DNA of 64,000 bases, taken from the sequence record PX104378.1; one strand, 5' to 3'. The notes under the pieces were generated by a model. It was not told where the DNA came from. It did not search any database and saw only the letters and a list, made by a program, of their open reading frames with translations. The translations under genes and the position numbers were made by a program. Below are positions 31,911 to 32,327 of this stretch, piece after piece; position 1 is the first letter of the stretch; every line of letters starts with the position of its first letter. The DNA is from a phage.

Positions 31911-32327
31911 TTAGAGAGATTCGGTAAAGGTACGAGCGATAACATCACGTTGCTGGTCTGGAGTCAGACTATTGAAGCGCACTGCGTAACCAGAAACGCG
32001 AATTGTAAGCTGCGGGTACTTCTCAGGATGTTCAACAGCGTCCAGCAACATTTCTCGTAACAATACGTTAACATTCAAATGCTGACCACCTTCGACAACC
32101 GGAGCACCATTATCTACAATCACCGGACGGAAGCTAGTTGTGTGCAGTGCCAGCGAATCGACGTCTTCTGCGGTGATCACATGGTCTTCTGCGAAAGTTT
32201 TACTAACAATTACTTTAGCGCCGATCAGTGCTTTCGGTTCGGATACCAGAATCATAGGCGCGAAGTGTCCACCAATAATAGTACCTTTATGCGCACCTTT
32301 CATGATTTGAATTGCTTTAAATTCCAT
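31911..32327 (-). CDS. grcA: autonomous glycyl-radical cofactor GrcA/YfiD-like protein
   Basis: C-terminal ..[51 protein letters not shown] is near-identical to the E. coli GrcA/pyruvate-formate-lyase glycyl-radical tail. Confidence 0.85.

Follow-up and report, generated by a model that had tools for sequence, protein, structure and literature searches.

The 64,000-nt stretch of phage DNA analyzed here (PX104378.1), called the window below, encodes a small protein whose C-terminal end resembles the glycyl-radical tail of GrcA (YfiD) and of pyruvate formate-lyase (PFL). The same window encodes the class III ribonucleotide reductase NrdD and its activase NrdG. The question raised by this locus is which enzyme the small protein would serve, and how the phage came to possess it. 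The gene is very probably the Krischvirus (RB49-type) ortholog of T4 vs.6/Y06I, and by analogy with the T4 protein it would function as a phage autonomous glycyl-radical cofactor for the host PFL. The features of the locus and the two nrd genes are as follows.

31911..32327, minus strand: vs.6 / phage grcA coding sequence (138 aa plus stop), ortholog of RB49 vs.6 (RB49p099) and T4 vs.6 (Y06I) by phrog_1209 and synteny
32100..32327, minus strand: phage-type N-terminal half, residues 1-76, with the motifs KAIQI..G.HKGTI and IVSKTF.ED, recognized by BLASTP against the T4 Y06I N-terminal half
31914..32099, minus strand: PFL-type glycyl-radical domain, residues 77-138, recognized by Pfam Gly_radical, the PflB/GrcA alignment and Foldseek
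31989-31991, minus strand: codon of the radical glycine G113 in the motif RVSGYAV (R110-V116), placed by invariant alignment columns
32331..32339, minus strand: Shine-Dalgarno sequence AAGAGGTGA, 4 nt 5' of the vs.6 ATG, read directly from the sequence
31867..31901, minus strand: intrinsic terminator from a terminator scan, a 10-bp stem AAGCCAATCC...GGGTTGGCTT followed by the T-tract TTTCGTTTTA
10864..12726, minus strand: nrdD, class III (anaerobic) ribonucleotide reductase with its own tail ...IRRVSGYLG... (Pfam NRDD, 2e-175; T4 NrdD 1H78, 6e-254)
8958..9467, minus strand: nrdG, radical-SAM activase of NrdD (Fer4_12, 2.4e-43, and a Radical_SAM match; annotated nrdG in RB49 and relatives); the coordinates are those of the mechanical ORF, and the true start may be further inside

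The vs.6 reading frame runs from ATG to TAA, and its translation agrees with the tail quoted in an earlier note on this DNA, which was made from the sequence alone. The Shine-Dalgarno sequence overlaps the TAA stop codon (32338-32340) of a 41-aa ORF upstream. The terminator sits directly 3' of the vs.6 stop codon; its RNA fold reaches -19 kcal/mol (z = -4.5), none of 200 shuffled sequences was equally stable, and a "terminator" is also annotated in related records. The closest same-strand match to a T4-type late promoter, TATAAATA, is ~5 kb upstream of vs.6, at 37214. A scan for sigma70-like promoters yielded generic matches only (16, with 9.5 expected), and therefore no promoter was assigned to vs.6. 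Leftward is the direction of early/middle transcription in T4-like genomes (PMC1524935). The leftward orientation of vs.6, its operon-terminal place and the distance of any late promoter fit prereplicative expression.

Two neighbouring genes were also characterized. The downstream neighbour nrdC.11 (31126-31824, minus strand) encodes a predicted nucleotidyltransferase with a match to Pfam RlaP ("RNA repair pathway DNA polymerase beta family", 2.3e-15), and the annotations seen define no function for nrdC.11 in T4-like phages. The endolysin encoded at 33017-33406 (minus strand) belongs to Peptidase_M15_4 (L-alanyl-D-glutamate / D-Ala-D-Ala peptidase type, 4.4e-12), unlike the T4 gpe-type lysozyme, and its gene occupies the region where T4 has denV and ipII.

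The sole Pfam domain of the 138-aa protein is Gly_radical, matched at residues 78-119 with E = 1.5e-16 and 61 bits against a cutoff of 22. Among proteins of the PDB, phmmer matched it best to E. coli GrcA/YfiD (6OWR, 4.9e-33) and then to PflB (~6e-27), while other glycyl-radical enzymes (GREs) were matched at E = 1e-12 or weaker. The tail aligns with PflB 698-759 and GrcA 66-127. Over the last 62 residues, the amino acid identity is 90% to E. coli GrcA and 81% to both PflB and TdcE, which bears out the near-identity to the GrcA/PFL radical tail that the earlier note had seen over ~60 residues. One 12-residue segment of the tail is nearer to PflB (MNREMLLDAMEN) than to GrcA (RRETLEDAVKH). G113 aligns to GrcA G102 and PflB G734, and all residues invariant across 56 aligned phage and bacterial GrcA sequences, the radical glycine included, are kept. 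These matches place the radical domain in the PFL type and in no other GRE type. The GrcA-like reading in the earlier note is not refuted, because the radical-glycine context, RVSGYAV, is intact. The domain is carried by a small stand-alone protein with its own ribosome-binding site and terminator. The ~690-residue catalytic barrel, which carries Cys418/Cys419 in PflB, is absent, and therefore the window protein is no enzyme on its own.

The overall confidence of the AF2 model is moderate (mean pLDDT 77.5), while the tail is confidently modelled, with blocks over residues 91-138 at pLDDT 73-91. The top Foldseek match of the model is the YfiD NMR structure 6OWR (E = 4e-6, TM 0.75 on target), and superposition with the radical loops of other GREs is at ~1 A. 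YfiD has a disordered N-terminal stretch of 60 residues, which contributes to the binding of cleaved PFL, and its residues 61-127 adopt the fold of PFL 693-759. The C-terminal half of the vs.6 protein is predicted to take this same fold.

In the alignment of phage and bacterial proteins, the tail is almost invariant and the N-terminal half falls into two types. The phage type, which includes T4 and the window, reads M-KA[YIF]QI..G.HKGTI together with [IV]VSKTF.ED, and the bacterial GrcA type reads MI.GIQITKA.N..L.NSFWLLD..EARC. The N-terminal half of the window protein matches that of T4 Y06I at E = 2e-9 in BLASTP. The same program returned no alignment with the N-terminal half of E. coli GrcA, and HMMER carries the GrcA alignment back to residue 37 only. 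The sole N-terminal feature in common with E. coli GrcA is the glutamine Q7 in the motif [GA][IY]Q[IV], which is near-invariant in both types. The AF2 model places short strands in this half with moderate confidence (pLDDT 56-86), and Foldseek detected no significant structural relative of it, the radical domain being the only part matched. Among Krischviruses, the N-terminal half shows dN/dS of ~0.1-0.2. E. coli GrcA/YfiD (P68066; 6OWR) is, like the window protein, small and stand-alone, with the RVSGYAV loop and the same fold of the C-terminal half; it differs in the N-terminal 60-76 residues, which give no pairwise alignment, and the window gene is phage-borne and placed in a phage operon.

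The two types of N-terminus are also reflected in the profile matches. The window protein scores 133.7 bits (residues 37-138) against the NCBIfam equivalog TIGR04365 ("spare_glycyl"), below the cutoff of 170 bits, and E. coli GrcA scores 234 bits. This cutoff is not discriminating as a membership test, because the biochemically validated T4 Y06I also falls below it, at 151.1 bits; the window protein misses it because the cutoff reflects the bacterial N-terminus. The match to phrog_1209 is full-length (5.3e-51; residues 3-138 against profile positions 1-121 of 121). On the basis of these profiles, the gene is filed in the phage vs.6/Y06I branch (phrog_1209) and not as a bacterial-type GrcA equivalog.

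RB49-like phages (genus Krischvirus, family Straboviridae) share 97-98.6% DNA identity with the window across the vs.6 region. In RB49, the ORF at the identical place, between nrdC.11 and vs.8 and downstream of regB, is annotated vs.6, and its product is 99% identical to the window protein. The order regB...vs.6...vs.8 on the leftward strand is common to the annotations of RB49 and T4. T4 Y06I resembles the window protein in its syntenic place, its phage-type N-terminus (KA[YI]QI..G.HKGTI, IVSKTF.ED) and its PHROG family. Its tail is 87% identical to the window tail over the last 62 residues, and the overall identity is ~60%. Y06I has 120 aa compared with 138 aa in the window protein, whose N-terminal half has an extra stretch of ~12-18 residues. 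Judged by synteny and protein similarity, the window gene is the RB49-type ortholog of T4 vs.6/Y06I.

Much of this family has been described before. The PFL-activating enzyme (PFL-AE) installs a glycyl radical on both T4 Y06I and E. coli YfiD, and both restore O2-cleaved PFL (Wagner et al. 2001, Knappe and coworkers, as related by Andorfer et al., PMC8683613); these two are the only validated spare-part proteins (PMC8683613; 2026 review PMC13450708). With PFL rescue shown for Y06I, the proposal in the earlier note of a phage-encoded GrcA/YfiD-like glycyl-radical protein is upheld through orthology. In the comparison of Nolan et al. (2006), vs.6 appears among the conserved ORFs, with a match to Gly_radical, in 6/6 genomes, RB49 among them. 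The RefSeq name of T4 vs.6 (NP_049730) is "autonomous glycyl radical cofactor GrcA", and "autonomous glycyl radical cofactor" already appears in the Krischvirus GenBank records of kaaroe, PHB13, W115, kvi, JK32, Skers, and Makalu_003. A phage spare glycyl-radical protein is thus already known, and the vs.6 observation is real but ordinary.

Homologs were found by tblastn in 1,581 phage records from T4-like, T5-like, and jumbo phages. The T4-like carriers include phages that infect Escherichia, Klebsiella, Yersinia, Aeromonas, and Vibrio, and the jumbo carriers include a Serratia phage. The phage-type N-terminus also occurs in entries labelled as bacterial, namely "GrcA [Escherichia coli]" on a 168-kb contig and "MAG: ... 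[Bacilli bacterium]". Both probably derive from phage contigs that came under a bacterial label through binning or deposition.

Infection by T4-like phages shuts down the expression of host genes. Neither induction of host grcA nor resynthesis of PflB would then be available, and therefore the phage would bring its own spare part. The vs.6 gene would be expressed leftward and prereplicatively, from the final position of a small operon closed by a strong terminator. The C-terminal 62 residues of its product would copy the radical domain of the host pyruvate formate-lyase (PflB 698-759). When O2 cleaves PflB at Gly734, the small vs.6 protein would dock on the damaged enzyme; the N-terminal half, which is PFL-binding in YfiD, is here 18 residues longer than that of T4 and has no pairwise similarity to that of E. 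coli. The host activase PflA would place a radical on Gly113, and the radical would pass to PflB Cys419, so that pyruvate is again turned into acetyl-CoA plus formate. In the bacterial system, the radical is transferred from GrcA G102 to PflB C419 (PMC12338860). Activation by PFL-AE and rescue of cleaved PFL are attributed to the window protein by extension from T4 Y06I and E. coli YfiD.

Two benefits may follow for the phage. Fermentative ATP production would continue under micro-oxic gut conditions, and the supply of formate, a reductant for the phage-encoded class III enzyme NrdD/NrdG, would be kept up. The class III ribonucleotide reductase (RNR) of E. coli uses formate as its hydrogen donor (Mulliez et al. 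1995), and the NrdD of the window is a close homolog of T4 NrdD, as the match to 1H78 indicates. A metabolic link from PFL through formate to the class III RNR is plausible. In the literature searched, neither an in vivo phage phenotype nor an auxiliary-metabolic-gene role of vs.6 or phage GrcA was found.

Three other readings of the gene were weighed. Recent capture from an enterobacterial host, as suggested in the earlier note, would make vs.6 a host grcA, or else a 3' fragment of pflB, a passenger lacking phage-specific history. The 90% amino acid identity of the tail to E. coli GrcA speaks for it, and T4 demonstrates that such exchanges occur: the last 180 nt of T4 vs.6 (NC_000866, segment numbering 6558-6920) are 96% identical to E. 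coli K-12 grcA (3067-3450), with 95% identity at third positions and dS of 0.08, and the identity collapses abruptly upstream, at the phage-type N-terminus. The T4 gene has the look of a chimera whose host-type radical tail was exchanged recently, and the capture idea fits that tail, not the window gene. In the window, the last 62 codons are only 73% identical in DNA to E. coli grcA, pflB, and tdcE, with third-position identity of 44-48% (44% for grcA), and 41% of the amino acids identical between the tail and GrcA are encoded by the identical codon. Nei-Gojobori (NG86) pS values are saturated (0.79 for grcA, 0.70 for pflB, and 0.73 for tdcE), and dN is ~0.10-0.15. Searched by blastn, all 5,426 complete E. 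coli genomes yield at most 75.7% identity (185 nt), in pflB rather than grcA. In a search of 5.8 billion proteins, the closest ones (74-99% identity) are all Krischvirus-type proteins of 131-138 aa; beneath 74% there is a gap down to ~60%, where T4-like and bacterial GrcAs appear together, and no bacterial GrcA exceeds ~55-60% full-length identity. The N-terminal half is common to T4-like phages and not to bacteria, and the gene is syntenic between T4 and RB49. From the saturated synonymous sites, the neighbour gap, the phage-type N-terminal half and the T4 synteny, vs.6 in the window is judged to be an old phage gene under strong purifying selection (dN/dS ~0.06-0.2 within Krischviruses), a selection that is reflected in the similarity of its tail to host proteins. 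Recent capture of the window gene is very unlikely.

It is equally improbable that vs.6 supplies a spare radical domain to the O2-sensitive NrdD of the phage itself, activated by NrdG, in place of host PFL. The idea draws on the presence of NrdD and NrdG in the same window, on the fact that NrdD is also a glycyl-radical enzyme with RVSGY, and on the speculation of Nolan et al. (2006) about a role of vs.6 in nucleotide metabolism. However, the earlier note's placement of the gene "alongside" NrdD/NrdG is right for genome content and not for position, since NrdD is ~19 kb and NrdG ~22.5 kb away, and this spacing of 19-23 kb rules out an operon or physical linkage in the window. BLASTP between the vs.6 protein and the NrdD of the window recovers only the pentapeptide RVSGY (E = 1.7), and in the C-terminus of NrdD the radical loop is immediately preceded by a Zn-ribbon (CxxC...CxxC), which is absent from vs.6. 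The spare-part role for NrdD is unsupported because of these two differences. The tail is instead 81-90% identical to those of PflB and GrcA, and T4 Y06I worked with PFL and PFL-AE. In two other phages, one a T5-like Salmonella phage and the other Vibrio phage QD01, the GrcA-like gene has no nrd gene beside it. T5-like phages with a GrcA-like gene also carry nrdD, such as vB_EcoS_FFH_1, where the genes are non-adjacent. The link between grcA and nrdD is only one of co-occurrence in the same genomes, never of adjacency in the contexts examined. A somewhat less remote reading, still improbable, is a decoy or regulator that titrates PflA or displaces the radical domain of intact PflB/TdcE, throttling or redirecting the pyruvate/formate flux. 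In its favour, the phage-type N-terminal half departs from that of bacteria, and partial order is predicted for it. Engagement of full-length PFL is possible because E. coli GrcA acts in vivo on the uncleaved, radical-dead PflB-G734A, with formate produced only in the presence of GrcA (strain table in PMC12338860). Conservation of every invariant residue among the 56 sequences, including the radical glycine, is expected of a catalytic radical carrier and needless for a mere binder, and T4 Y06I restores activity in vitro.

The radical tail of this gene has a mosaic history in the genus. In the alignment of Krischvirus vs.6 sequences, the N-terminal half is nearly invariant and the tail occurs in very different versions. 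The DNA of pEJ01 and JK32 is 98-99% identical to the window down to ~32140 (around codon 63), ~65% identical from there to the stop codon, across the whole radical tail, and again 97-98% identical beyond a 594-bp HNH endonuclease gene (segments compared: window 31846-32140; in segment numbering, pEJ01 1501-2556 and JK32 5152-6209). This free-standing HNH gene is inserted in the spacer between vs.6 and nrdC.11, at ~31864-31846 of the window. The cassette of HNH gene plus swapped tail is present in 9 Krischvirus records, and the window carries the HNH-free, RB49-type allele. The HNH-linked tail swap looks like homing-endonuclease co-conversion or a resistant allele, for which such a pattern is typical.

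Other insertions were observed in these genomes. In JSE (NC_012740), a "Homing endonuclease" is annotated at 55243-55998 in the vs.6/nrdC.11 spacer, to which the pEJ01-type HNH query has no match. The split match recurs in 011D4 and Whisky, where the gap is ~500 bp. The vs.6/nrdC.11 spacer may be a hotspot for mobile endonucleases. A separate mobile element lies between vs.8 and the endolysin gene in some Krischviruses (JK32 6893-7468; KMB43 2218-2793, segment numbering) and is absent from the window; it is annotated as "pathogenesis-related transcriptional factor and ERF protein" in JK32 and as "homing endonuclease" in KMB43. The KMB43 gene was considered as a counter-example to the link between HNH gene and tail, and it was rejected, being at this different site (vs.8/endolysin) in a phage that keeps the window-type tail.

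A tentative and rather doubtful extension is that phage GrcA consists of two modules, a phage-specific, possibly ordered N-terminal targeting domain and an exchangeable radical-tail cassette. If so, the N-terminal module would engage host PFL, perhaps undamaged PFL or TdcE, independently of host GrcA, and the tail would be repeatedly replaced, by recombination with host grcA in T4 or by HNH-linked alleles in some Krischviruses. The sequence encoding the glycyl radical would then double as a homing or recombination target, with the tail kept matched to host PFL, and the HNH-free allele of the window might be endonuclease-sensitive.

The discovery value of the window gene is small, as the biochemistry of Y06I dates from 2001, the RB49 gene was recognized in 2006, and the annotation exists in several Krischvirus records. 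Its residual value lies in a putative in vivo role and in the way the radical tail has evolved as a mosaic, a modest evolutionary curiosity. The coupling from PFL through formate to the phage class III RNR offers a testable rationale for the gene, and the ~1,580 phage records with a homolog argue that it makes a real contribution to fitness in gut habitats where oxygen fluctuates.
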